NCBI GenBank assembly: GCA_000004985.1
Contig: GG738857.1
Reading direction: 5' to 3' (one strand)
From: Naegleria gruberi
Lineage: Eukaryota
DNA: 64,000 nucleotides
The position numbers and the translations under genes are program-made. The notes under the pieces were generated by a model, which was not told the DNA's origin, did no database searches, and was given only the letters and a program-made list of their open reading frames with translations. Numbering within the stretch: the stretch's first letter is position 1; each line of letters opens with the position of its first letter. Shown here piece after piece: positions 1 through 16,539 of the stretch.

Positions 1-1826
1 AGTTTAACGGGAAACAACAAGCAAAGTTCCGAAGATCATGTCTGGATAAATGGTTTGTATTGTATTGTATAAGAATATGAATTAATTGTTCTTCTTTAGC
101 TTGGTATGATCCTCTTGCTTCCGTTACCTCTCTTTCACAATGTATGATGTTTTCTGATATTAATGGTGATGGAGACTACAAACTTGTGGTAGCTACTGCA
201 AGTAAGAATCCCTTAGAAAGTAAAAAGACAAAACAAGCTCACAGATTGAGAGTCTATAAAGGTACTGGTATTATCAGCGAAAATGTTTTAATGGAGGAAC
301 CTATTGCACTCGCTTCCTACTACACTGACTACTCATCACCTAAAAGACCTATGATTGTCGTCGCAAGTAGTAATCACATTTACTATTACAAAAACCTACA
401 ACCATTCTACAAGTTTACTATGCCGGCAAAGACTACAGAAGAAAAGGAAGTGGAAATTTGGCAATATTTAAAGGAATCTAAATATGATGCCAAGACTGGT
501 TACGCTGAATTAGCAAGACTTAGAGATCATAATATTACTCTTAGTACAAGGAGTTACGAACTTCTTTCTCTTACATCAAATGAAGATATTAAGGCGTTCA
601 TTGATACCAGGAAAAATTTTGCCTTGGAGAGTCCAAATAATATTACAACTCTATCAATTCTTCCAAAAGACAGAGAAGGAGATGACGCAATTGGATGTCC
701 AGTTGTCGGTACAGAGAGCGGAATAGTTTTTATCTTAACTCCCCAAGGATCACAAATCATGAAAGCTGTTCAATTGCCTTCAGCACCTGTAAAATTTTGT
801 ATTGCTGGTAACTATGATAGTGATTATAGAATTACAGCAGCATGTAGAAATGGAAATGTATATACCATTAAAAATGGAGAAGTGAGTGGCGTGGTTATTG
901 AGTTGGAATCTCATCCAGTTTCTATTGTAAAAATAGACAAAACTTTTGCTATTGGCCTTATGAACAATAGTATTCATTGCTACAATACAAGAGGAAAGAA
1001 ACAATACTCTATCTATTTACCATCTAATATTAAGGACATGGAAGTTCTTGAAATGAGAGGCCAACGTAGTGTGAAATGCATAATAGTAGCTATGGAGAAC
1101 AAGGAATTGAGAATTTATAATGGTAAAAATTTGGTAAATAGGATTGAATTATTTGAAAATATTGCCAGTCTCAGATATGGAATATACGGATCTGAGGTTA
1201 ATAGTTTAATCATTTCTTATAGAAATGGCGGTCTTGATTTTAAAGTTATCTCAAGAAAGGCAAGTTTGGAGAGCAAATCCAAAACTGGTCCACCACCAGA
1301 ACAGGAAGAGCCTTTGGATTTACCCTCCAAGACTTTCCTTTATTTGGAACAAACAAAGAGAGAAGTGGATTATTGCTCTGAAATGCATAATGTTTTCCAA
1401 AAAGATTTGGCAAGAATTAGACTTCACACTGCGAGGGCATATGTTAAAATTTTGACAGATGGCCAAGGTCCATTATCTTACACTTCCGGATCCTCTATTC
1501 GCTTGACGGCCCAAGTGCAAGGACTAGGTCCAAAGTTTAAGATTAATATTGAGGTTCAGAATACTGGCAAAAAGTCAATTTCCCAGTTATTCATTCTATT
1601 TGTTTTTAATGAAGATCTTTACTCGGTGGAGGGTGATGCAAGAAGATTGCTTCTTCCTCCTCTTCTTCCAGGACCAGTATACAGATTTAGTAAGGCAGTA
1701 ACCATGCTTGATCCTTTAGTTGCCCCAGAAACAATGAAATTATATGTTTGTAGTAAGGAGAGTCAAACACCTGTAATAACTGCTGTTGTAAATATGCCAC
1801 CAACAGAAATGATTGAATTAGTATAA
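1..1826 (+). CDS. BBS1: Bardet-Biedl syndrome 1 protein (BBS1, BBSome subunit). 5' partial: exon <1..52, intron 53..99 (GTTTGT..AG), exon 100..1826
   Basis: The translation matches BBS1 in several places, e.g. DINGDGDYKLVV vs human HGDGEYKLVV. Other matches: IYYYKNLQPFYKFTMP vs VYVYKNLRPYFKFSLP; AACRNGNVYTIKN vs AACRNGNIYILR; GPPPEQEEPLDLPSKTFLYLEQTKRE vs [33 protein letters not shown]..QNT.. vs QGLGPTF..QNT... The upstream frame stays open to position 1, and the small intron restores WYDPL (human HYDPM). Confidence 0.85.
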
Positions 1827-2334
1827 ACTTTTTATTAATAATTTGAAACTCTATAATTGCCATTTTACCAGAGAATATTACGATTAATTGAGATATGGAA
1901 ATATCATGATTTAACTTCGCAAGCCATAATGTTCATGATCTTAGAATTCTTTTAAATTCACGGTTTTGTTTTTTGGAGTGCTCCCAAAAAGTCATTCTGC
2001 AAACATTGTGATTTCTTCCCAGTGCTCTGTGGAAGCAAAATAGATGTTAATTTGGTTTGGAATCTTTAGTAAGGGTGTTGAAACAACTCAAAAAGCTCTC
2101 TAATTTTAAAAAAAAACCACTGCTAAAATATTTGGGCCCCTAAAGATTCCAAACCAAATTAATATTTATTTTGATGGAATCATTCTTGAGAAGTGATACC
2201 ATCATTCCATTAGAGTGGGTCCAGTCTTTGTGCTATTCTTTGAATCCAAATTTTGAGGAGAAGGACAAATCAAATTGATAAAAATTCTACCATGGCATTC
2301 CTGTGTCAAAAGTGAATTGACGAGTCAACAAAAA

Positions 2335-3500
2335 ATGCGTAAATCAACATCTGAAAAAACTCTTCCAGAAACAATCAACATAAAAAACCCATCCGAAGAT
2401 GAAAAATCCACTCTCCAACAACAAGATTGGTTTTGTGAATTAGTTTCAACCTACACAGAGCACAAGATAAACGCACTTGAGAAGGAAAATCAAAACCTAA
2501 TCCAAAAGTTGTTGGCTCTAACAGTTGATCAACGCTATATTAAATTTCTTGAATCTATTCCTTCATTGATGCAAAAACAACAAGAGCACAACAAACAAGG
2601 AAACTCTGACAATGAGTACAAAAAGTTAAACGAGAAGCTTGATGAAGTAATTGATGATTATGAGGACGTCAAGAGGAAATTAAAAAAAGCAGAAGAGAAT
2701 GCAAAAAAACCAAAGATGCTTTTGTTGAACAGCACTATTATAATGAAGAGAATATTAAAGAAATCACCAGGAAAGAAGAGAAGGTACGTGAAGAATTGGC
2801 TACCTTGAATGGAAAGTACCTTTATGAAAAGGAATCGTTCTTGAAACAAGTGTCCGAGTTAACAAAAGAAAGAGATCAACTAAATGATCAAATTTCAATT
2901 TACAAAACTCGAAATGATCCTGCCTTGCTGATGAATGACTTTTCTGATAACACAGTCAAAAAGATACATGATGAATATGTCACTTTGAAATCACACGATT
3001 TGAATTCTTTTGTGGGAAGAGTAGTTGAAGAACATTCATTAAGTGAAGATCAGGAATTTGATTTTGATTTAAAAATTGTTGCATTTGCATTCAAAACAGT
3101 CCGTAAACTCATTGAAGAAACCTATTCTGAAATGAATTTCGAACTAATTGGCAAGAAACTTACAAATGAAGAATCAGAAAGAAACCGCCTTATTGAAACC
3201 CTCGTCCAGACAATTGCAAAAATGGAAGAAATTGGAAAGAACAAGAAATTACAACAAGCTGCCAGAGAATTTATAACCAAACTCGTGAAATTCTATTGTA
3301 ACATGTTTCTCATTGATAAGAAGCTTGAATTGGTTTGGGCTTCAACTGGATCTCTCTACAATCCTGAATGGTACGATTCAAGAAATGCAACCAGTAACAT
3401 TGTAGTCACTAATGTTTTCAAACCTGCTCTCATGGACACATTCACCAAAACAGTCTACGAAAAAGGAATTGTTGAAACTACCCAAAAAAGGAAAAAATAA
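2335..3500 (+). CDS. Coiled-coil protein, paralog family member P1, with a conserved C-terminal domain. There is an apparent 1-nt frame change near the A7 run at 2702-2710 (ORFs 2275..2808 and 2796..3500 are the same gene)
   Basis: The ATG at 2335 has an A-rich context. It shares the motif NDPAL(L)MNDFSDN and the C-terminal block LELVW...NPEW...PALM with the ORFs 6801..8432 (-) and 8567..9778 (+). The frame of the second ORF stays open back to 2664 and reads as coherent coiled coil (KDAFVEQHYYNEENIKEITRKEEKVREELATLNGK). Confidence 0.55.
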
Positions 3501-3522
3501 CAATTATTACCTATATCAATAT

Positions 3523-6500
3523 TTATATTAAAACTCTCTTGTATGTAATTAAATATTCAGGATAGCATTGATTCCTATCATAGATAATATATTCATTGTA
3601 GGTGTGTTGTGATACCGACTTGGATCTTCCAATAACACTGTCATAAACTCTTCCATTTGAGTTTTCAATGACAGGTGGTCTTCTTTCATTTCTCATCTTT
3701 TCCCTTGTTTTGAAAACCATCTGACCTAACAGAACTCTACTGAGAAATATAAAACACTCACCATCCTTATTCGAAACACAATATTGATCACTCTTACTAC
3801 AGCAATCAGCAAAGTATATTCCAGCTCCAAACAAACCACTCAAAGCACTCAATCTTTCATCAAAGCCGTGTTCTGAAATGATTGACTTGACTACTTCTGT
3901 TGTTCCATGCCATAAATAAACTTCATTCACATTGGAATCTAATTCACACATTTCGTCAACAAAATCATTTCTAATTGGTATATCCATTACCTTCTTTTTA
4001 TCCTTATAGGAAATTAGGTGTTTCTTCTTTGATAGATACATTTCATAAAGTGATAAATTCTCAATTCTTTCCACTTTTAGAACTTGTAACTTGTTATATG
4101 GAAATGAATCTTTTTCATGGTTTCGTTTCTTTCCTAATGTAATTGTTACACATGTCTTATCCAATAAATCTTGAATATCCTCTTTTAATTCAGCGGTAAC
4201 ATCTATAATTGACATGTTATTTTGATTTGATTTCCAATAGGAAGGCTTTTGTTTCGTTTCCTTTCTTCTTGTCCCACGAAAGAATTCATGTCTTAATAAC
4301 TCAGATGCAGATAAAGTACAAATTTCTTCACGAATATTAATTGAGTCCATTAGCGTTTTCAAAAGAGATGAATATTCATCGAGTCGTTCCATTGACATGA
4401 TGTCAATTACCATTTTCACGAAACAAAACATTTCTTTCTGGAATGGTAATTTGTTTCCCTTTTCCTCTATTTTCACAACATTATCAAATCCATCCAATAT
4501 TAATTTAACTTGTTCATCTTCAATAATTTTCACATACACATTCGCAGCTCTAATATTTCCATGAACAAATGAATAGGTATGAAAATGATGAATGGCTGAA
4601 AGAATCTGAAACCAAATATCTTCCCATCCTGATCTAATGGATGAAAAATCTTTCAATGTTCCAATTGAGTAATATGGCATAACAATACAAAGTTTATCTT
4701 GACAAAGATAAAATCCAATTAATTCTGCAATATTTGAATGTTTGATTTTCTCTAGAATTTCAACTTGTTCAATTACCATTTCAATTTTATCCAATGAATA
4801 TTGTTTAACACGATAGAAAATATTCGAATTCTTATCAACTGCCTCAATAAGCATATAATTCAGAAATGCAGTTTCACTAATTGTAGTCAATTCCAAAGTG
4901 CTTACATCTTGAATTCCTATAATTTCTGATAGTAAATCATAGAATCCTGATCGATAGAGTGTAATTGATTTGTTTCGAATATCATTTCTGTTAATTTGAA
5001 GAGTTTCGAGTTCAGTTTCTTGTTCCATAATTTTTAGACAGGGCGCAGTTGATGTTGAGTTGTTTGTTTCCCACAATTTTTTCTCAATTTCAATTGATCT
5101 TTTGCGTGCTTCAATGTTCTCACTCATTAATTTGTAATTAATTCCATATTTAGAAATATCAAATTTAGAAATTATTGTTAAAGTTAATTGCATATTTTTA
5201 AATTCATTACAGATGGTAGTAATATTATTGATAAAATCAAGGCAATTATTTTTCATATCATCAATAAAGTAGCAATATCCTTTCAATTTCTTTTTCAATA
5301 AATGATACAATTCCAAATTTGGATTTTCTTTCAATAAGGAAAATAATTTTGAAATGGAATCTCCAATATCATTTGTATCATTGCTTATTTCTGAAAATTC
5401 AAGTGTTGAAATATTACTTGAAAAATTTGAAAGAAAATTTGCAACTCCACTCAATTGCTTATTACATGTATTAATCCATTTCTCCAAATTAGTCGAATAT
5501 TCTTCAAATGTTAATTCCAATTCTTCATAATTCGATATTTCATTACATGGAATTTCTTCTCCACCATTCAAAAATTCATTAATTTCTTTAGAAATTTCAC
5601 TCAAACTCTTTACAAATTCAATAAGAAAATTTCCATAATCACTTTTCTTAATTTGATTATTCATTGATTCATGGATTTGAAATTTGCTTCGAAATTCAAT
5701 TAAATCTTGAGGATTTTGTGATGAATAAATCGATTTTGAATTAATTTGGATAGGGCTGAGAAGATTCTTAATATCTGTAAACTTTTTCATGTCATATTCG
5801 TTAATTATGATATTTCTAATAAGTCTATCAGTGGTAAATCTTATAGTTTCCAATTGATTTTTCCTATTTTTGTATTCGAAACCTAATTGGGAAAGCTCTG
5901 TAAATATTGATGCAAAATGAATGAATTTAATTTCTATTGGAGATGTGCTAGTAGATGCTTGACTCACTTCTACATTAATTTCTTTTGTTTCCACATTAGT
6001 CTTATTTCTTTTTTCAGATTTCATTTCCTTTTGAATCGTTTTTATGGATTTCCCGCCACATTTCAATGCTATTGATATTTTGATATTAGGATGTTCTAAT
6101 AATAATTTTCACAATTTCAATTTTATCTCTTTCGCAAGCAACTTGCAAAGGTGTTTTAACCTTCCAAAATTGGTAAAATAAAAACTTGCAAATTAATACT
6201 TACCATCTTTAATCTTAAAACTCAATTAATTAAATATCAAACTTACATTCTGAATAATTCAATAAATGTATACTCATCATTAACAAGTTACTTACACCCT
6301 TATTAACATCCAATTCATTTGATTCCAATAATAATTTCACAATTTCAAGATGACCATCATAACATGCAATAAACAAACAAGTTTGTTCTGATTCTACACC
6401 ACAAAATGTCTTGAATAACAAGCTAATAAGTATTCATTTTGCTTCAAATCATACTTACTTCATTGACATTGACAAGTGACAGTAAATATTTGACAATCTC

Positions 6501-6782
6501 AACATTTCCACTTCTACAAGCATGATACAATGGAACCTAAACACATTTAACAATATATGATGATATAAAACCTACTCCGATTCTTGGATTTACCTTCTTT
6601 TCTTCTAACAAGTATTTTGTAATTCTTGTTGAATTATTAGAAATTGATTCTTCTAATAGAGTTTTGTTCGAAACAAGAGTTTTTGAAAAATCGGACAAGG
6701 ATTCAGCTAATGAAATGAATTGCTCTAAATTATCACTTGAAATTGACGAGATTACTTTCTTCTCAAGTTTCTTTTTCAACAT
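3523..6782 (-). CDS. Ankyrin-repeat / pseudokinase-like / PARP catalytic domain protein (tankyrase-like ADP-ribosyltransferase). Exons on the minus strand: 6782..6594, 6536..6459, 6409..6296, 6160..3523, with an apparent 1-nt frame slip at the T4 run 6106-6109
   Basis: The C-terminus (LWHGT...GAGIYFAD...HTYNEYIIYD...YPEYLITYK) matches PARP1 LLWHGS...GKGIYFAD...LYNEYIVYD...YLLKLKF, with an intact H-Y-E triad. The central region is kinase-like but has HGN in place of HRD and DGF in place of DFG. The N-terminal exons encode ankyrin repeats (VPLYHACRSGNVEIVKYLL; TCLFIACYDGHLEIVKLLLES; KTPLQVACERDKIEIVK). Minus-strand GTAAGT donors and AG acceptors were located by hand. Confidence 0.8.
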
Positions 6783-6800
6783 TTTTTTTAAACTAAACTT

Positions 6801-8432
6801 TTAATTCTTTTTTGACACTCTGACAATTACTTTTGCCTTCTCATAAATACTTCTCGATTGCAACTGCATTAGGGATGGAAAGACTGTGCACTGAATCTTT
6901 GGAATGGTTGTGTTATTTCTTGCATCTTGTTCGTATGGATTAAAATTGTCCTTTGCTTTATACCAAACGAATTCCAACTTTTTTGAATTGGTAAACATTT
7001 TCATGTAGAGTTCAATTGCCTTATCAAGTAATTCTGAGGTTAGATTACTAACTTCCCGATCTCTACAAATATGCTCAGGATTCTCAACTTTGAATTTGTT
7101 GAAAACGTGTTCAATGGAGGTGAAAATCTCATTGTGGCAGCTTTTGAGTAGTTTTTTCTTATCTGAATCTTCCAATGGCTTGCATCCATAACCTAATTTC
7201 TTGTCTTTCAATCTGTGTTGTAATGATTTGCCCTTATTGTCGTCTTGAGCTGGTGAAAAGAGGTATTTGGCTAATTCCATTTCAATTTCACATTCAAAAT
7301 CTTGTGCTACATCATCTCCATTAAGATTTTCACTCATTTCTTCACAAAGAGAACCCAATGAATTCTTAATTTCAAAATAAGCATCCTTAATTGACTTGGT
7401 GGTATTGTCGGAGAAATTGTTCATCTCAAGAGCTGGATCATGTTCTGCTTTGACAATTCTAAAATTATCTTCAAGTTGAGCAATCTTTGATTCTAAACCA
7501 TTTTTCAGTTCGATTAGTGCTTCTTTTTCTTTCTCAAATCTTGATTGGTTTTCACTTGCTTCGGTTCTCATTCTGTTTTTATCCTTTTCCAGATTTGAGA
7601 TTTTACTTTCAAGAGATTGAAGGTTTGCCTGGAGTTCAAGTGTGTCATTTTTAAGATCCTTATTATCACTTCTCAAATCTTCAAGCTTTTTGGTTGTATT
7701 TTTGTGGCTGTCTTGTTCAGTCTTCAACTTTTGTTTAGTTTCATCATGTTCACTTCTCAATTTGTTGAAATTCTTTTCTAAAGTGTCCTTTTCCTTCTTG
7801 AGATCTGTAAATTCTTTTTTCTTTGTATTCAATTCAGTAATCTTTTGATCTTTTTCACTAACCAATTGCTTTTCACGGTTCTGCAAATCATCATTTTCTT
7901 TCTTTAATTTCTTCTCATTATCTCTTGCTTCATTGCTTTCTTTGGTTAATTTTTTAATTCTTTCATCTTGATTTTGGGATTTTTCTAATGAGATTGATTT
8001 AAGGAATTCAACAAGTTTCTTATCAACTTGTACAGTGTCTAATATGTCTCTTAATCTGTCAACTTCCTTGGTATGCTTTTCTGACTCTTCCTGGATGTGG
8101 TTAACTTTGTTTTTTTCCTTATCAAGATTACTTTGGAGAATAGAAACTTGTTTTCTTTGACTCTCTAAATCTTGTTTAACCTTGTCAAGTTCGTGTTGGA
8201 GGATTTGTGCTACATTCTTTTCCTGGTCCCAATTACTTTGCAGATTGGAGGTTGTTAGCTTTTCTTTATTAAAGGCCTCTTCAATTGACTTGAGTTGAGT
8301 TTGAAGTTGTGAAATTCTTTTTTGATAATGGGAGGGATCTACTTCTTGTGTTGGGGGTGGAACATCACTTGTTGGTTGTTGTTGGGGTTTGATGGTGGAT
8401 GATGGTTTATTTGAATTGGATTCGTTTGTCAT
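6801..8432 (-). CDS. Coiled-coil protein, paralog family member P2, with a conserved C-terminal domain
   Basis: It is a long heptad-rich ORF (K/E/L/Q) with the motif HDPALEMNNFSDN and the C-terminal block LEFVWYKAKDNFNPYEQDARN...FPSLM, shared with P1 and P3. The ATG at 8432 has an aaaaaaaATG context. Confidence 0.6.
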   Translation of the reverse strand: MTNESNSNKPSSTIKPQQQPTSDVPPPTQEVDPSHYQKRISQLQTQLKSIEEAFNKEKLTTSNLQSNWDQEKNVAQILQHELDKVKQDLESQRKQVSILQSNLDKEKNKVNHIQEESEKHTKEVDRLRDILDTVQVDKKLVEFLKSISLEKSQNQDERIKKLTKESNEARDNEKKLKKENDDLQNREKQLVSEKDQKITELNTKKKEFTDLKKEKDTLEKNFNKLRSEHDETKQKLKTEQDSHKNTTKKLEDLRSDNKDLKNDTLELQANLQSLESKISNLEKDKNRMRTEASENQSRFEKEKEALIELKNGLESKIAQLEDNFRIVKAEHDPALEMNNFSDNTTKSIKDAYFEIKNSLGSLCEEMSENLNGDDVAQDFECEIEMELAKYLFSPAQDDNKGKSLQHRLKDKKLGYGCKPLEDSDKKKLLKSCHNEIFTSIEHVFNKFKVENPEHICRDREVSNLTSELLDKAIELYMKMFTNSKKLEFVWYKAKDNFNPYEQDARNNTTIPKIQCTVFPSLMQLQSRSIYEKAKVIVRVSKKN

Positions 8433-8566
8433 TTTTTTTAAAGACGTACGAAAATTTGACGAGTTGTAATGTAATTTTGAAACCTGCATTCCGTGTTCCG
8501 TTCTGTGAATTGACGAGTCATCATTCACTTGTCAAATGTTTAACTATCAAACAAATAATCAAAAAA

Positions 8567-9778
8567 ATGGGATTCTTTGGGTTTTTCAGTGATGACAATA
8601 AAGAAGAAATAAAGAAGGAGTTGAAGGCGGCAAAGGAACAAATTGAATACCAAAAGAAAGAGGTAGAAAGCCAGCGAAACAAAATTATAACATTAGAAAC
8701 AAATAACACCAATTTGCAAACTAGAAACACAACTTTACTCCAAGAATTTAAAATTTTAAACCCGAAACTTGAAAAATTAACACTTGAAAAACAAAATTGC
8801 GAATATATTTCCTCTCAATATCAAGCAAAAGCACAAGAATTGAACAAGAAATTACAAGAACTCGACAAGCAGTACAATTCCACTGTTCAAAATCTCAACA
8901 CTGAATTACAATCTTGTAAATTTCAATTCAATCAAGCAATCACTGAGTGGAAGCAAGAGAAGAACAAATTTGAATTAGAATTGAAAAGTGTAAAACAATC
9001 AAGAGATCAACAAATTTCTTATTCCACTCAATTACATTCAGCATTGACTGAAGAAAGAGAGAATTTCATAAACTTGTCCCAAACCAAAGAACAAGAAATT
9101 GAAAAGTTGAAAGCTGACATTATTTTAATCAAAGCTCAAAATGATCCAGCACTTGTTGTCAATGATTTCTCAGATGAAAGTCCTAAACAAATTAGAGATT
9201 TGTATCTTCAATCAAAATCAAGTATTGACACTTTGACAACAACCTTGGAAGACAATTTGACAGAAGATGAACAAGAACAATTGGAAATTATTATAGCCAA
9301 GACACTCTTTGAGAAATTAGAAGAGACTGTTATGAAATTTGTGTGTGAAACAAAACAAGTTGACAGCAGTGATAGAAAGCTCATTGGTGAATTATTGAAA
9401 TCAGATATTGAAATGAGAAAGCTTGTTATTTATCATACTTCAGTTGGATTAATGAATCAAATTAAGGAACAATTTGCCAGTTTTAGTAATTTTATTGAAA
9501 ATTGTAAAGATGAAGAAAGAATTCAAATTCAAAATGAAATTGACACAATGTCAACAAGTTCAATTTCAATGCTAGCAATGATCTTGAGAAATGAGCAAAA
9601 TATTGGTTTCGTTTGGTATAAACCAAAATCAGATTTCAATACTTTAGAACAAAGATCAAGAAATGCTGATAAGAAAATTGTAATTGATACTTGCATTTAT
9701 CCTTGTTTAATGTTGAAGGGATCAAGAAGTGTTTTTGAACAAGCAGTTGTTACAACAAAATTAACAAAACACAAATAA
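8567..9778 (+). CDS. Coiled-coil protein, paralog family member P3, with a conserved C-terminal domain
   Basis: The ATG at 8567 (aaaaaaaATG) is divergent from P2, with about 134 bp of shared upstream region. It carries the motif NDPALVVNDFSDE and the C-terminal GFVWYKPKSDFNTLEQRSRN...YPCLM. Confidence 0.6.
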   Translation: MGFFGFFSDDNKEEIKKELKAAKEQIEYQKKEVESQRNKIITLETNNTNLQTRNTTLLQEFKILNPKLEKLTLEKQNCEYISSQYQAKAQELNKKLQELDKQYNSTVQNLNTELQSCKFQFNQAITEWKQEKNKFELELKSVKQSRDQQISYSTQLHSALTEERENFINLSQTKEQEIEKLKADIILIKAQNDPALVVNDFSDESPKQIRDLYLQSKSSIDTLTTTLEDNLTEDEQEQLEIIIAKTLFEKLEETVMKFVCETKQVDSSDRKLIGELLKSDIEMRKLVIYHTSVGLMNQIKEQFASFSNFIENCKDEERIQIQNEIDTMSTSSISMLAMILRNEQNIGFVWYKPKSDFNTLEQRSRNADKKIVIDTCIYPCLMLKGSRSVFEQAVVTTKLTKHK

Positions 9779-9994: not shown

Positions 9995-11871
9995 ATGAGC
10001 ACCAGCACCCTCATCAAACCACAAGCAGGTAAAAACTTTGTCGTTTGCATTGACTTTGGATCTTCAGGTTCTGGCAGTTCAATTCTCTTCGTAAAGGATG
10101 AAGATAAAATTTTCACTCTCAAAACTTATCCAGACTCCCCTAACGTAGTTTACAATAAGAATATGTCATGTATTTTATATGAAGATGGTAAGAGACATAG
10201 TATTGGTTATACTGCTAGAAAGACAATGTTCTTTGAAAATGATGACGAAGATTCAGATGAAGATTCCGGTGAAGATTCGGATAGAGATTCAGATAGTGAA
10301 AGTGAAGAATCTCATGGATCAACTTCAACTGCTCCATCAAAAAAATCAGCAACTCCACTAAAAGATAGAAAATTTATCAGAGATTTAAAAATTCAATTCA
10401 TGGAAGCAACAAAAGATGAGAAGGAAATTTCAATTCCAGAAATAGTAATTTCCAATGATGGAACAACCAAATCTTTACTTGATGTGATGGCAGATTACTT
10501 ATCCATGTTATTCACAGATTTTATCATGAAGAGTTTAAAGAATAACGATAGCTCTGTTAAGAAAACTGATGTTCGTTGGTGCATTACAGTTCCCGCCAAC
10601 TATTCAGAACATCAAAAATCCCTAATGAGGAAAGTGGCATGTAAGGCAAAGATTATAGATAAGGAAAATTGTGATGAGAGTGATTTGATTATCATTTCTG
10701 AACCAGATGCTGCTACCATGTTCTGTATGAAACATAAGGCTAAATCTAAACCACTTACAAATGGTGAAACTTTTATGGTAGTTGATGCTGGTGGTGGTAC
10801 TGTAGATGGTAAGTTTGAGAAATTCTTGATTTAACATTTAAATTCTGTAACAGTCAGTTGTCATATGCTTGAAAATGGTAAATTGAAAGAGTTGGCAGTT
10901 CAAAAGGCAGAGCTATGTGGTTCTACATTTATTGATAGAGAATTTATTAAGATTTTAGAAGAAAATTGTGATAATTTCAAAGAATTTACAGAGAAAAATC
11001 CAGAAACTCTTGTCAAGATATTATCAATTTGGGAAGATGTTAAGAGAGGTACTTTGACAGTTGACAAGAAATTGACATTTGACACATCTCCAATGTTTAA
11101 AAAAGCAAAACCTAATAGTTCAATTTACAAATCAAGATCTACCAAGATTGCATTAACAGATGAACAAATGAAAAGAATATTTGACAGTCAAGTGTCAAAA
11201 GCACTCAAATTGATTGATGAAGTTTATAGAGATTATGAAGAAGATTATCCAAGTAGAAAGATGGATCACTTATTTATTGTTGGTGGTTTAGGAGATAATG
11301 GTTATTTCCAAAATCGTATTAAGGAAAGATTTGAAAAGAAATTTAAGGAAATTTTAATTCCACTTTTCTGTTCGACAGCTGTCATGGAAGGAGGTGCATT
11401 ACTTGCTAAGGATCCATCATTCGTTCAAGAAAATCAAAGTTATCATATGGTGTTGGTGTCATGGAAGAATTTGAAGAAGGGCATCATGCTGAAAGCAAGT
11501 ACAAGGTCATTAATGGTAAACATATGGCAGTTGACGTGTTGGATGTTTTTGTTGAACAACGTGAAGAAGTTGAAATTGATAGAGAAATTGTTAGAGAATA
11601 TGAATGTTTACCAGGTGCTACTCAAATTGATGTTGTTCTCTATTCATCTATTAAGAGAAGAGAAGCAATTCCTTATATTGATTCACCACTAGTTTCTAAA
11701 GAGGAAACAATTACAATTCCTTTTAGAGATTCATCAAAGGAGGCAGATAGAAGAGTTTTTATTAAATTCTTCTTTGGTAAATCAGAATTAATGATTACTG
11801 TTGAAAATGCACAAGGTGAAGTTAAGGAAATTAAGAGAGATTTTGAAGCAAACTCACTTGCCCTAAAATAA
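9995..11871 (+). CDS. HSPA12-like Hsp70-superfamily ATPase, paralog A. Exon 9995..10808, intron 10809..10853, exon 10854..11871 with an apparent 1-nt frame change near 11410-11420 (possible pseudogene or assembly indel)
   Basis: Shared motifs with HSPA12A: VVCIDFGSSGSG (HSPA12A VVAIDFGTTSSG); WCITVPANYSEHQKSLMRKVA ([21 protein letters not shown]); MVVDAGGGTVD then splice to VSCHMLENGKLKELA (VVVDSGGGTVDLTVH). After the frame change the reading frame gives LSYGVGVMEEFEEG..., which matches paralog B RMTYGVKAQKGSEE and human PLTYGVGV. Confidence 0.6.
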
Positions 11872-12116: not shown

Positions 12117-13901
12117 ATGTCATCATCAACTGTTCCTGTTCGTTCAGGTTCCCTCAACAAGAAGAAAGTTGTCATTTCCATTGATTTTGGTACATCAAGA
12201 ACTGGTTTCTGTTATTCACTCACCAATGATGTGAAAAAGACTCGAGTTAAGAATACCTCATGGAAAGATGCACCAAGTGGAGTTTCATTCCCAAAGACTC
12301 TCACTCAATTACTTTATGAAAAGAGTGATACAAGAAAACCTGTTGCTTGGGGTTACACTTCACTTGACATGTTGTCAAGAGAATTTGAAGATGAGAGTGA
12401 ATCTGATGAAGATGAAGAAGGTGGTGAAGAGATTCCAGCACAAAATAGCAAGTATTATCATTTCAAGACATTCAAAATGGGATTATTCAATAATCCATCT
12501 GGTATGGTGAAGGATACAACTGGTGTTTTTGAAAAGAATGTTGGTGAATTGATAGTTGACTATTTGAAATTATTATTCCATGATCAGATTAAGCCAACTG
12601 TTGAGAAATCATTGGGATCTAAATTGAATCTTGATGAAGTTACTTGGTGTTTAACAGTTCCAGCCATTTGGAAAGATGAACAAAAATCAGATATGAGATT
12701 AGCTGCTTACACTGCTGGTTTAACAAAGACACCTGAAGCATCTTCTGATGATTTTAAGATTATTCTTGAACCAGAAGGAGCTGCTGCTTATTGTATGGAA
12801 TATCAAGCTTCTAAAGGTAAACCATTGAGAGAGGGCGAATCATTCCTTGTTTGTGATCTTGGTGGTGGTACAGTTGACTTGACATGTCATAAATTTGAAA
12901 AGGCAAGATTGAGAGAATTAGCTGAAGGATCTGGTGATGCATGTGGTTCTACATATTTAGATGATGCTTTTATTATTTATTTGGAAGAATGTTTTGGTAA
13001 GAAATTTGTTGAAACCTTAAGGAAAAAGTATGGCCAAACTTATTTGGACATTTTAAAGATTTGGGAAAGAACAAAAGTTACAACAACAGATTTAACAAAA
13101 GATATTAATGTTGATATGCCTGGTCAATTAAGTAGTTTTTTAGAAAGTGCCAATGTTAAAAGTGATAAATTCAGAGCTAAAAGAGGTCAACTCAAAATTA
13201 CAAGTGAAGCTTTACAAACAATTTATCAAGATTCATTAGAAAAAACAAGAAATCTTGTTGAAAAGCAATTAGAAACAATCCAATCAGAGACTGGTAAAAT
13301 GGTTGATTATATTTTCATAGTTGGTGGTTTTGGTGCTTCCAAAGTAGTTCAAAACTTTCTAATTGACAATTTCTCTTCACAAGTTAAGGGAATTGTAATT
13401 CCAAATGAACCTGCTGAAGCTGTTGTTGATGGTGCTGCATTATTAGGTATTGATGATTCATTAATTTCAACACGTAGAATGAGAATGACTTATGGAGTTA
13501 AAGCTCAAAAAGGAAGTGAAGAAATATTCGATACTTTTGTAATTGCTAATCAAGAACTTGAAGTTGATCAAGGAATTTCAAGAGAATACAAAGTTCAAAG
13601 AGCTAATCAACAAGCTATGAAAATAATCATCTACAGCACTAAATTGAAATCAATTACAAAAGTTGACGAAACTAAATGTCATAAGATTGGTGAAATTCAA
13701 GTACATATGACAGATATGACAGGTGGCATGGATAGAATAGTGAAAGTTACAATGTATTTTGGTAGATCAGAAACTAGAGTTACTGCCATTGAAAAGAATA
13801 CTGGAATTGAGTATAGTGCATTAATTAAGTATGATGGTGAATTATTTTCACATGGTGAAAGTATTGCTGACACTCCACCAGTTCAACCTCACCATTTGTA
13901 A
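12117..13901 (+). CDS. HSPA12-like Hsp70-superfamily ATPase, paralog B (single exon)
   Basis: VISIDFGTSRTG, WCLTVPAIWKDEQKSDMRLAAYTAGL, ILEPEGAAAYC, FLVCDLGGGTVDLTCHKF, YIFIVGGFGASK and RMTYGVKA are colinear with the human HSPA12A motifs. The ATG has an aaaaaaaATG context. Confidence 0.8.
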   Translation: MSSSTVPVRSGSLNKKKVVISIDFGTSRTGFCYSLTNDVKKTRVKNTSWKDAPSGVSFPKTLTQLLYEKSDTRKPVAWGYTSLDMLSREFEDESESDEDEEGGEEIPAQNSKYYHFKTFKMGLFNNPSGMVKDTTGVFEKNVGELIVDYLKLLFHDQIKPTVEKSLGSKLNLDEVTWCLTVPAIWKDEQKSDMRLAAYTAGLTKTPEASSDDFKIILEPEGAAAYCMEYQASKGKPLREGESFLVCDLGGGTVDLTCHKFEKARLRELAEGSGDACGSTYLDDAFIIYLEECFGKKFVETLRKKYGQTYLDILKIWERTKVTTTDLTKDINVDMPGQLSSFLESANVKSDKFRAKRGQLKITSEALQTIYQDSLEKTRNLVEKQLETIQSETGKMVDYIFIVGGFGASKVVQNFLIDNFSSQVKGIVIPNEPAEAVVDGAALLGIDDSLISTRRMRMTYGVKAQKGSEEIFDTFVIANQELEVDQGISREYKVQRANQQAMKIIIYSTKLKSITKVDETKCHKIGEIQVHMTDMTGGMDRIVKVTMYFGRSETRVTAIEKNTGIEYSALIKYDGELFSHGESIADTPPVQPHHL

Positions 13902-14659: not shown

Positions 14660-16539
14660 CTACCAATTTGGTTGTGGATTTTTAGTTCTAGATTGATATT
14701 TTCTATCAAACATTTGATATAAATAACCTTCACACATTCCTTGTACTTTGTTGAAATGACATCTAACAAATGGATCAATTTTAGATGCTAAAATAGTTCT
14801 CTTAACATTTGGTCCTAAAATTGGTAATAAGAATTTCTTAAACCACCAATTACCACCTTTAGCATCTAATTGTAAATCAACCATTGTTGCCATAATATAT
14901 GGTGGAATATAAATTCTATAAACACGTGTTTGGAACTCTTCAAATGTTTTGTAATCAATTGTAGAAACATCTCTTCTTAAAATTTCATCTAAAATTAATT
15001 GACATTCTGTCATACATGTAACACCTTGTCCATAGACAGGATTTAATGATCCAACTATTTGCAATTAGTTAATGAATTAATCAATTAGTCAATTAGTAAA
15101 TGAATCAATCTTAATAAATCTTAATAAAATTGCTTACCTGAATCACCAAGTGCAAGGAAATTTTCAAGAACATGTTGATTTCCATTTTCATCCTTATATT
15201 GTGTAATCTTTTCCCAATGATTTAAAACAGTTCCATCCTTCTTATAATTTGACCAATCAATAACTGGACCTTGTTCTAAATCACAATGTTCAAAGAATAA
15301 TTTAGTCTTTTCTGAAATATCAGGTGAAACCTTACTTAAATAATCAATACAATCTTCATGATTCTTAATTTTAACACATTCTGGATTTTTACTACCAGTT
15401 TCACCAATAATAAACATTCCCTTATCTTGTGAAACTCTATAGTAAATCATACCACTTTTAGTTGGAAAACCAACATTACCAATATATGCCCAAACAGGTG
15501 TTTTACCATCTTTTTTAAAGAATCCATCTTGCATATTTGGATCTTTCAATTTGTAAATTGCTGAAGTGTAGGTTGTTGTGAGAATAATCTTACTCTTTTC
15601 CATTTCAAATTTTCTATTAGAATCTTTGGAAAATTCTTCTTCAACCCAAATTGGTGTTTGAGTTGTTAAACCTGAACAATCAATTACTAAATCTCCATAA
15701 ACTTGTTCACCTTCTTGTAATTTAACACCTTTAACACGATGAATAATTTTAGAATCTTGTGTTTGAACCTTTTCAAATATTAAACCACTAACTGTTTGAT
15801 CATCTCTGAATTGAATTTTACCCAATGGTGATGAATTTTCATCAATAGTACTACTATTATTACTACTATTATTACTATTACTATTATTATTGGTGTTGAC
15901 ATTAGTTGAAGTAGATGATTTTCCAATTAATGATGAAGAATTCTTATTAATATTCATAATTAAATCTCTAATATAAGATTCAATTTGATATCTTGTCATT
16001 TGATAACCAGGTGGACAAATAGTTTGACCTTCAATTAAACCACATAATTTATCAGATTTACCATCAATGGCAGCATAATCTGTATTTTCAATTAAAATTT
16101 TAAAAGCTCCCATCTTTTCAATTTCATTAATAAAATCAATATTTAAATAACCACCAAATAATTTCTTGAAAATTGTAATACATCTCAATAAAAAAATGTG
16201 AGTTTGAGTTCCTTGTGGAGCAGTTGACTATTACAATAATATTTAATATTAAATATTAAATTACAATATTTAACATACCTTGTTAGTTTCATATCTCTTC
16301 TTTTCAAATAAAATAACATTTTCAAAATGGAAACAAGCATTGAGTGCAGTTGTAATACCACCAATACTACCACCAATAATAATACATGTACCTTTCTTTT
16401 TCTTATCTGAAACTTGTCCAAGTTTAGAATTTTCCAATTTGACTTGAGCATCAAAGAATGGTTTAATATTATTTAACCAATAATAATAGGCATAACATGG
16501 AAGTGCAACTAGTGCAGACAATGCAAGATATCCTAACAT
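14660..16539 (-). CDS. Class A flavoprotein monooxygenase (FAD-dependent hydroxylase/epoxidase-like) with an N-terminal TM helix. Minus-strand exons 16539..16279, 16227..15138, 15054..14660
   Basis: It has an N-terminal hydrophobic helix and then a Rossmann GxGxxG (IIIGGSIGG). The spliced junction gives GDS|VGSLNPVYGQGVTCM, i.e. the GD...P..GQG FAD-binding fingerprint of class A monooxygenases. The introns are GTATGT..AG and GTAAGC..AG. There is an internal poly-Asn/Ser insert. Confidence 0.65.

Follow-up and report, generated by a model that had tools for sequence, protein, structure and literature searches.

Coiled-coil proteins with a GrpE- and MIEAP-like C-terminal domain encoded beside HSPA12-type Hsp70 genes in Naegleria gruberi

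Exchange factors, HSPA12 and Mieap

GrpE is the nucleotide-exchange factor of DnaK and of mitochondrial Hsp70, and no other fold family is known to partner the nucleotide-binding domains of Hsp70 proteins in this way. Hsp110, BAG and HspBP1/Sil1 bind the Hsp70 nucleotide-binding domain and promote the release of ADP, a role analogous to the one I will propose for the proteins considered here, but their folds are unrelated and none of them appears among the structural matches described below. The function of HSPA12 was called "presently unknown" in a 2026 review, which also described the bacterial derivatives of DnaK as largely unexplored "dark matter" (PMC13580251). Mieap (SPATA18) is p53-inducible and linked to tumour suppression, and its C-terminal domain is without an assigned fold (PMC10845071).

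Three paralogous genes and their neighbours

The genes in question lie in a stretch of 64,000 nt of Naegleria gruberi DNA (contig GG738857.1), which I will refer to as the window. Three of them, P1 (2335-3500, + strand), P2 (6801-8432, - strand) and P3 (8567-9778, + strand), encode a heptad coiled coil and, after it, a C-terminal domain of about 220 amino acids, found at 2865-3497 (+) in P1, 6804-7481 (-) in P2 and 9092-9775 (+) in P3. P2 (NAEGRDRAFT_79006; D2V8J7) is a protein of 543 amino acids and P3 one of 403. The P1 domain is read as a DPAL motif, a helical bundle and a beta domain, and the AF2 model of the P2 domain predicts helices and then a six-stranded beta domain.

An earlier note on this DNA had described the three as paralogues with a common C-terminal domain, and this holds. 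The mutual BLASTP E values are 8e-23 (P1-P2), 2e-15 (P1-P3) and 2e-28 (P2-P3), far below the 0.01 beyond which the note would have given up the relationship of the C-termini, at identities of 27-29% and with alignments that cover the C-terminal 225 or so amino acids plus part of the coiled coil. The long heptad coiled coils that it read in all three are borne out by a hydrophobic periodicity of 3.5 residues, which in P1, P2 and P3 stands 4.4, 9.5 and 5.3 standard deviations, respectively, above that of shuffled sequences; these segments consist to 53-60% of E, K, Q, R, D and N, with Pro and Gly nearly absent. Each protein also carries the DPAL-type signature that had been pointed out (RNDPALLMNDFSDN in P1, EHDPALEMNNFSDN in P2 and QNDPALVVNDFSDE in P3) and the C-terminal block, (L/I)(E/G)(L/F)VW...(F/Y)N(P/T)...RN...P.LM. 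A tblastn search of the 64-kb window found no fourth copy.

The coordinates given earlier for the three ORFs are right, but P1 is not a single intact ORF: frame 0 extends from 2335 to 2808 and frame 2 is open from about 2662 to 3500, the two overlapping. This frameshift had escaped the earlier note. One A added to the run of seven at 2704-2710 would restore a protein of 388 amino acids, and P1 may be a pseudogene or the product of an assembly error. An intron was considered as the cause of the frame change and rejected, since none of the GT..AG candidates that fit the phase starts with a Naegleria-like GTAAGT donor; the coiled-coil reading in both frames up to the A7 run also opposes it. The reference annotation ends at the frame break (NAEGRDRAFT_65180 is the N-terminal ORF of P1, 2335-2805, 157 amino acids), and the public model of P3 (NAEGRDRAFT_65183) takes in the last 148 amino acids only. 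The present analysis corrects both of these errors, which had kept the family hidden.

P2 and P3 diverge, as had been noted, across an intergenic region (8433-8566) that measures 134 bp and contains GTGAATTGACGAGTCA at 8505-8520 and TTTGACGAGT at 8455-8464. A second exact copy of the former 16-mer, at 2312-2327 (+), ends 7 nt upstream of the ATG of P1 (2335), and the 16-mer is a candidate for a cis element shared by P1 and the P2/P3 region. Between P1 and P2, again as described before, lies a gene (3523-6782, - strand) with ankyrin repeats (E 4.7e-39, from exons spliced by hand), a kinase-like domain (E 2e-10) and a PARP catalytic domain (E 2.4e-25). I considered this gene as a part of the module and set it aside: it is not adjacent in the available contig of N. 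fowleri, where the positional counterpart of P2 adjoins a gene with an SNase domain and the contig ends, and it is therefore probably outside the P1-P3 unit.

Directly downstream of P3 are two genes of the HSPA12 type, both missing from the earlier note. Gene 1 (9995-11871, +) has a 45-nt intron (10809-10853); it also carries an acidic insert and, near 11417-11422, what looks like a 1-nt frameshift. Gene 2 (12117-13901, +), the putative partner ATPase, encodes 594 amino acids. Gene 2 matches human HSPA12A, whose sequence was verified as exact, over its full length (residues 18-562; 206 bits, E 1e-62), whereas canonical Hsp70s reach at most 31 bits and match in the nucleotide-binding domain only; full-length similarity to HSPA12A in excess of that to canonical Hsp70s is what places the gene in the HSPA12 subfamily. 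The similarity of the Naegleria genes, and of their Beggiatoa counterpart, to HSPA12A/B takes in the non-canonical C-terminal region and a TVPAIW motif, at an identity of 26-31%.

Relatives in Naegleria fowleri and in bacteria

The genome of N. fowleri contains a syntenic triplet of the coiled-coil genes beside two HSPA12-like genes, plus two dispersed copies, one of which (P0003) has no Hsp70-like neighbour. The Naegleria copies are about equally diverged, with identities of 23-30% that include comparisons of N. gruberi with N. fowleri, as against 60% between the two species for the adjacent Hsp70-like gene. Neighbour-joining gave bootstrap values of only 7-50% for one-to-one orthology between the copies of the two species. 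Judged by sequence, P1-P3 belong to a small coiled-coil family that evolves fast. The earlier note had seen in the locus a local tandem or inverted duplication of a lineage-specific module; a recent event of this kind is contradicted by the N. fowleri triplet, the near-equal identities and the existence of bacterial homologues.

The P2 domain as a query in a word-indexed homology search gave zero matches, a profile of 8 sequences found 3 proteins only by such a search, and an exhaustive HMMER search of 1.84 billion proteins, with a profile of 3 sequences, picked out no more than 8, so the family is either rare or very divergent. A metagenome scan recovered only the Beggiatoa contig that was already known, and a profile search of PDB sequences with the family gave coiled-coil noise only.

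The bacterial homologues come from the giant sulfur bacteria Beggiatoa/Thiomargarita, from one MAG each of Thiotrichaceae and Flavobacteriaceae and from two metagenome contigs. In these loci an HSPA12-type gene immediately precedes the homologue on the same strand, with a spacer of 5-6 nt in three of them (L002, L006 and L009) and of about 170 nt, as measured to the longest ORF, in a fourth, from a MAG (L008); the gene call in L005 is truncated at its 5' end. A gene for a 602-aa protein brings the operon to three genes. The bacterial HSPA12-type gene is 32% identical to that of Naegleria (E 5e-77) and, in Beggiatoa, 31% identical to human HSPA12A (E 4e-90). The linkage of a family member to an HSPA12-type gene is thus conserved in Naegleria, as a gene cluster, and in bacteria, as an operon, but the bacterial examples are all close relatives, so that the operon counts in practice as a single observation.

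A proposed GrpE-like co-chaperone and its alternatives

The best-matching solved fold for the C-terminal domain, as modelled, is that of GrpE, the top PDB match in three structural searches with two programs and two models. The scores lie in the grey zone, and the models are not fully independent, since the shallow alignments behind them (8 and 10 sequences) are largely the same. The predicted elements follow the order of those of GrpE: a long dimerising helix or coiled coil, a helical bundle and a C-terminal beta domain of six strands. The differences are a far longer coiled coil in P1-P3 (about 175-320 aa) and two extra helices per chain. P1-P3-type genes also adjoin the gene of an Hsp70-family ATPase, although the putative partner is an HSPA12-type Hsp70 and that of GrpE is DnaK.

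At the level of sequence the family has no significant match to GrpE. A Pfam scan that included the family consensus sequences gave no match to PF01025 at E<=10, and hhalign against a 3-sequence GrpE alignment gave P of 0.04-0.28, which is not significant. The score of the whole family (18.7, against 11.3 +/- 2.2 for shuffles) was reached by 1 of 100 shuffles and that of a bacterial-only profile, which did not rise above them, by 12 of 100. With MIEAP sequences included in the family profile the GrpE score was no better (P 0.05), and hhalign detected no signal between MIEAP and GrpE. The region aligned by hhalign is that of the GrpE beta-domain motif, GVExI..(F/L)DP..H.A...GY.L..R.(I/L)RPAMV.V. 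The motifs of the bacterial family, GELLWY..EFNpEEHEvL...PGY......RRIFEKAMVFT, and of Naegleria, LEFVWY..FNPyEq...P.LM..SRsvfEKA.V, keep the order of the GrpE beta domain, (F/L)(D/N)P..H ... GY/P.LM ... R.(I/V).(..)A.V.V.

The earlier suggestion of a MIEAP-like domain stands as distant homology only, not as membership in the Pfam family. P1 matches PF16026 with 21.3-22.2 bits (E 1.5e-4), below the gathering cutoff of 27 bits, and there was no PF16026 match in Pfam for P2 or P3, for five other proteins of the family or for two of its consensus sequences. By hhalign, the Naegleria profile aligns over 136 columns with an alignment of 16 MIEAP sequences (E 3.5e-4) and the whole family at E 5.7e-5; the score, 32.9, was reached by none of 100 column shuffles (13.5 +/- 2.9), although the HH probability is only about 35%. 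By these profiles, the C-terminal domain of P1-P3 is a remote relative of the MIEAP (SPATA18) domain of animals. The similarity spans the last 75-136 residues and includes a common block, ...(L/P)(D/E)(I/F)(A/V)(F/W)...(F/Y)N....(V/I)(W/F/Y)P.LM....(I/V).K(G/A).(A/V), and the architecture, a coiled coil and then a structured C-terminal domain, is also that of Mieap (PMC10845071). P1-P3 differ in that their sequences end 5-10 residues past the domain, with no RS-rich tail, and in that the family is one of bacteria and a heterolobosean; orthologues of Mieap are reported from metazoans only and as absent from bacteria (PMC10845071).

On balance I lean toward the view that P1-P3 act as dimers and serve the neighbouring HSPA12-like Hsp70s as their dedicated GrpE-like co-chaperones or exchange factors, their C-terminal domain being a divergent GrpE-type module. 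The coiled coil would dimerise, as the long helix of GrpE does, and the beta domain with its adjacent helices would contact the HSPA12-like ATPase at its nucleotide-binding domain, either opening the nucleotide cleft for exchange or holding the ATPase at a site or client that the variable coiled coil of the N-terminus selects. HSPA12 proteins have no known canonical substrate-binding domain, and so the classical cycling of exchange factors may not apply. That P1-P3 bind the ATPase, that they promote nucleotide exchange and what they do in the cell are inferred in this way.

A rather unlikely reading, though one compatible with a GrpE-like co-chaperone, extends a model of human Mieap (PMC10845071): a scaffold whose N-terminal coiled-coil/disordered half forms condensates and whose C-terminal domain binds cardiolipin/phosphatidic acid, with the Hsp70 neighbours incidental or regulatory. 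The profile homology to PF16026 (E 6e-5 to 4e-4), the P1 match and the shared architecture, in which the C-terminal domain ends in a (V/I)WP.LM...KGEA block, are in its favour, but inspection of the Naegleria sequences finds neither an RS-rich disordered tail nor an obvious mitochondrial presequence, the bacterial homologues share an operon with an Hsp70-type ATPase in a host that has no mitochondrion, and lipid binding by the Mieap domain itself is inferred rather than structurally shown.

Somewhat less probable still is a conflict or defence module, inherited or acquired by Naegleria, in which the HSPA12-like ATPase and a coiled-coil adaptor or effector (with, in bacteria, the 602-aa protein) would form an NTP-dependent sensor/effector. 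The sulfur bacteria concerned are indeed filamentous and multicellular, their loci are set among genes for HicAB, YafQ, PIN, RHS and WD40 proteins, the coiled-coil proteins change much faster than the adjacent Hsp70-like gene, copy number turns over, with P1 and Hsp70-like gene 1 as possible pseudogenes, and Hsp70 components have been described in such systems of multicellular bacteria (PMC7159879). Those NTP-dependent systems, however, couple Hsp70 to GTPases and tubulin (PMC7159879), which are absent here; the WD40 gene is not kept in L008 or L009, there is no recognisable effector domain, and PADLOC and NCBIfam give SMC/JetC-type coiled-coil noise only. I doubt most of all that these are ordinary lineage-specific structural coiled-coil proteins whose C-terminal domain is unconnected with chaperones, with a chance helical hairpin and small sheet to account for the likeness to GrpE and coincidence for the adjacency to Hsp70. 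The grey-zone structural scores and the lack of a significant GrpE signal in sequence would allow it, but Naegleria and bacteria have homologues of each gene of the pair, adjacent in both, and GrpE came out on top in each of the three structural searches.

It is a more tentative extension of the GrpE-like co-chaperone reading that the MIEAP domain, in animals too, would be a divergent GrpE-type module with the HSPA12 class as its ancestral and general partner, the pair being an ancient two-component chaperone system. A full-text literature search found no paper linking Mieap/SPATA18 to HSPA12 or GrpE. If the extension is true, human Mieap/SPATA18 and HSPA12A/B, the mechanism of each of which is obscure, would act together. 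From the conserved pairing of an HSPA12-type ATPase with a GrpE-like, MIEAP-related coiled-coil protein follows a concrete hypothesis for the two families, that of binding and nucleotide exchange, and the compact bacterial operon and the tractable amoeba make it approachable biochemically.

Three coiled-coil genes in Naegleria

The earlier note described three coiled-coil genes with a shared C-terminal domain, P1 (2335-3500, +), P2 (6801-8432, -) and P3 (8567-9778, +), and all three ORFs were found. Their products are similar to one another (P1-P2, E 8e-23; P1-P3, E 2e-15; P2-P3, E 2e-28; 27-28% identity), and the motifs on which the note had relied, DPAL...N(D/N)FSD and a C-terminal VW...FNP...P.LM block, occur in each. 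The proposed heptad coiled coils are genuine and form the N-terminal parts, with a 3.5-residue hydrophobic periodicity 4.4-9.5 sd over shuffles, 53-60% charged or polar residues, and hardly any Pro or Gly. P2 and P3 are divergent, 134 bp apart, and tblastn found no further copy in the 64-kb window.

P1 lies where it had been placed but is split by a frameshift between two frames. Frame 0 stops at 2808, the open stretch of frame 2 begins near 2662, and the coiled coil can be read in both as far as a run of seven A (2704-2710); one additional A in that run restores a protein of 388 aa. An intron was considered as the cause of the shift and rejected for want of a plausible candidate. The 543-aa product of P2 is identical to Naegleria gruberi NAEGRDRAFT_79006 (D2V8J7). 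In the reference proteome, NAEGRDRAFT_65180 is the 157-aa N-terminal ORF of P1 alone (2335-2805) and NAEGRDRAFT_65183 the last 148 aa of P3 alone (9332-9778), so that public annotation hides the family.

An exhaustive HMMER search with a three-sequence profile against 1.84 billion representative proteins matched only eight: P2, the P3 fragment, five from N. fowleri and one metagenomic protein. FDP41_002251, 002252 and 002253 are neighbors in N. fowleri, the first two divergent with 81 bp between them, as in P2/P3, and two divergent Hsp70-like genes lie directly beyond the triplet. Within Naegleria every copy is at much the same distance from the others (23-30% identity), and comparison of those from the two species yielded no assignment of orthology. 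Against this, the adjoining Hsp70-like gene is 60% identical between N. gruberi and N. fowleri, so that the coiled-coil genes are fast-evolving paralogues of old standing and do not stem from a recent local duplication.

Some features of individual N. fowleri copies may be recorded here. The N-myristoylation consensus fits paralogues P0004 (MGLSFS) and P0006 (MGNGVS), at 3496-4695 and 4851-5831 of the cluster locus L001; the start of N. gruberi P3 (MGFFGF, 8567) is off this consensus. In models P0007 and P0010 a paralogue and the LRR gene downstream of it are run together. The dispersed paralogue FDP41_013066 has no Hsp70-like neighbor, and some 4 kb separate it from a Tam41/Mmp37 gene (10001-10798 and 14844-16142 of its locus, L010). 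Tam41/Mmp37 is a cardiolipin-pathway enzyme recruited by human Mieap condensates; the proximity is probably a coincidence.

The gene between P1 and P2 (3523-6782, -) combines a PARP catalytic domain with a kinase-like domain and ankyrin repeats, as the note had indicated, and several short introns interrupt its ankyrin region. The kinase-like domain has HGN in place of the expected HRD, which suggests a pseudokinase, and the PARP H-Y-E residues are apparently kept. On the N. fowleri contig, which ends 1.6 kb beyond, the positional counterpart of P2 adjoins an SNase-domain gene and no PARP gene, so the interleaving is probably specific to N. gruberi. Upstream of P1, the gene at 144-1826 (+) encodes BBSome subunit 1 (BBS1; E 3.5e-76) and is ordinary, without relation to the cluster.

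An exact 16-mer, GTGAATTGACGAGTCA, stands shortly upstream of the start codons of P1 (2312-2327) and P3 (8505-8520). A variant, TTTGACGAGT, is also found within the P2/P3 intergenic region (8455-8464), and AATTGACAGGT lies between N. fowleri P0005 and P0004 (L001, about 3441-3451). With at most one mismatch allowed, the window contains 10 occurrences of ATTGACGAGT, where 3.4 would be expected. The 16-mer and its variants may be a shared promoter element.

HSPA12-type neighbors and the bacterial gene pair

The window genes at 9995-11871 and 12117-13901 (both +) encode Hsp70-like proteins. The product of the second shows a full-length match to human HSPA12A (the exact database sequence; residues 18-562 aligned with 57-662, 206 bits, E 1e-62), and canonical Hsp70s from the PDB score no more than 31 bits against it, in the nucleotide-binding domain alone. 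On these sequence comparisons both genes are classed as HSPA12-type atypical Hsp70s, proteins whose function a 2026 review terms unknown (PMC13580251). The first gene contains an in-frame 45-nt intron with a stop codon (GTAAGT...AG, 10809-10853) and an apparent 1-nt frameshift near 11417-11422 (GATCCATCA followed by TTCGT, where homologues have DPS-IRSR). Because two genes of the cluster, this one and P1, are thus frameshifted, each may be a pseudogene or reflect an error in the assembly.

A profile search found bacterial homologues of the coiled-coil proteins, P0014 (370 aa) and P0015, both related to the metagenomic match P0008. P0014 is encoded on Beggiatoa/Thiomargarita contigs of 130-270 kb, in a neighborhood of toxin-antitoxin, RHS and WD40 genes, and starts 6 nt 3' of a 576-aa Hsp70-like gene. 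The same arrangement, Hsp70-like gene followed by coiled-coil gene, recurs on two further metagenome contigs and in Thiotrichaceae and Flavobacteriaceae MAGs, although the bacterial examples are closely related sequences. In full-length comparison with the Naegleria protein, its bacterial Hsp70-like counterpart has 32% identity (E 5e-77); with human HSPA12A the figure is 31% (E 4e-90). Given this homology, the coiled-coil homologues and the shared adjacency, the members of the gene pair are homologous and linked in both Naegleria and these bacteria.

In each of the three bacterial loci that reach far enough upstream, the HSPA12-like gene is preceded by one for a conserved protein of about 602 aa (L002, 1670-3478; L008, 3094-4914; the Flavobacteriaceae locus L009, 2206-4017). 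This gene is a direct neighbor only in L009, where the 603-aa protein, Hsp70-like and coiled-coil genes follow one another with spacers of 21 and 5 nt; in L002 and L008 the order is unchanged, with small ORFs lying between the first two genes, and in L008 about 170 nt separate the Hsp70-like gene from the coiled-coil ORF. The protein begins with a coiled coil, has no match in Pfam, NCBIfam or PADLOC, and has no homologue in the Naegleria window.

Resemblance to MIEAP and GrpE

The suggestion of a MIEAP-like domain holds as distant homology between profiles but not as membership in Pfam PF16026. Only P1 matches that model, with a sub-threshold score of 21-22 bits (E 1.5e-4 to 3e-4), and family consensus sequences do not match it. 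A human SPATA18 sequence, approximate rather than letter-perfect, scored 256 bits across the whole model, and its domain as query retrieved 94 MIEAP proteins. In hhalign comparisons with a 16-sequence MIEAP alignment, the Naegleria profile aligned over 136 columns at E 3.5e-4 to 3.9e-4 and the all-family profile reached E 5.7e-5 to 4.1e-4. The score of 32.9 was reached by none of 100 shuffles (13.5 +/- 2.9; reversed control, 11.7), and a joint alignment contains a block common to both families. Mieap orthologues have been described in metazoans, with none in bacteria (PMC10845071), and full-text searches found no paper linking Mieap/SPATA18 with HSPA12 or GrpE.

In the AF2 model of the P2 domain (pLDDT 80.8, pTM 0.76), a run of helices leads into a six-stranded beta domain. 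GrpE, the Hsp70 co-chaperone family, takes Foldseek ranks 1-4 (E 0.14-0.29, probability 0.47-0.60; 1dkg, ranks 9 and 11) and is the best solved fold in two programs with two models. The alignments used are shallow (8-12 sequences), and the two models have most of one alignment in common. Motifs follow the same order in the beta domain of verified GrpE sequences (GVExI...(F/L)DPxxHxA...GYxL..RxLRPAMVxV), the bacterial family (GELLWY..EFNpEEHEvL...PGY....RRIFEKAMVFT) and the Naegleria family (LEFVWY...FNPyEq...P.LM..SRsvfEKA.V). Against GrpE, hhalign aligned these same segments without significance (P 0.04-0.28); the all-family score of 18.7 was reached by 1 of 100 column shuffles (11.3 +/- 2.2), the bacterial-only profile showed no excess over its own null, Pfam GrpE did not match the family, and direct comparison of MIEAP with GrpE profiles gave no signal. 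The assignment to GrpE therefore draws on the fold, the order of the motifs and the context of the genes, and not on sequence statistics.

Possible roles of the family

The similarity to MIEAP could reflect a Mieap-like condensate or lipid scaffold, which I consider unlikely. The bacterial gene neighborhood and the rapid evolution of the family would suit a module for conflict or defence, a reading to which I give rather little credence. It is more doubtful still that the likeness of fold arose by chance and that the adjacency to Hsp70 genes is incidental.

The most economical reading is that these are GrpE-type dimeric coiled-coil co-chaperones dedicated to HSPA12-type ATPases. The coiled-coil protein would bind the nucleotide-binding domain of its HSPA12-type partner and promote nucleotide exchange on it, and the MIEAP domain would be an animal relative of this GrpE-type family.
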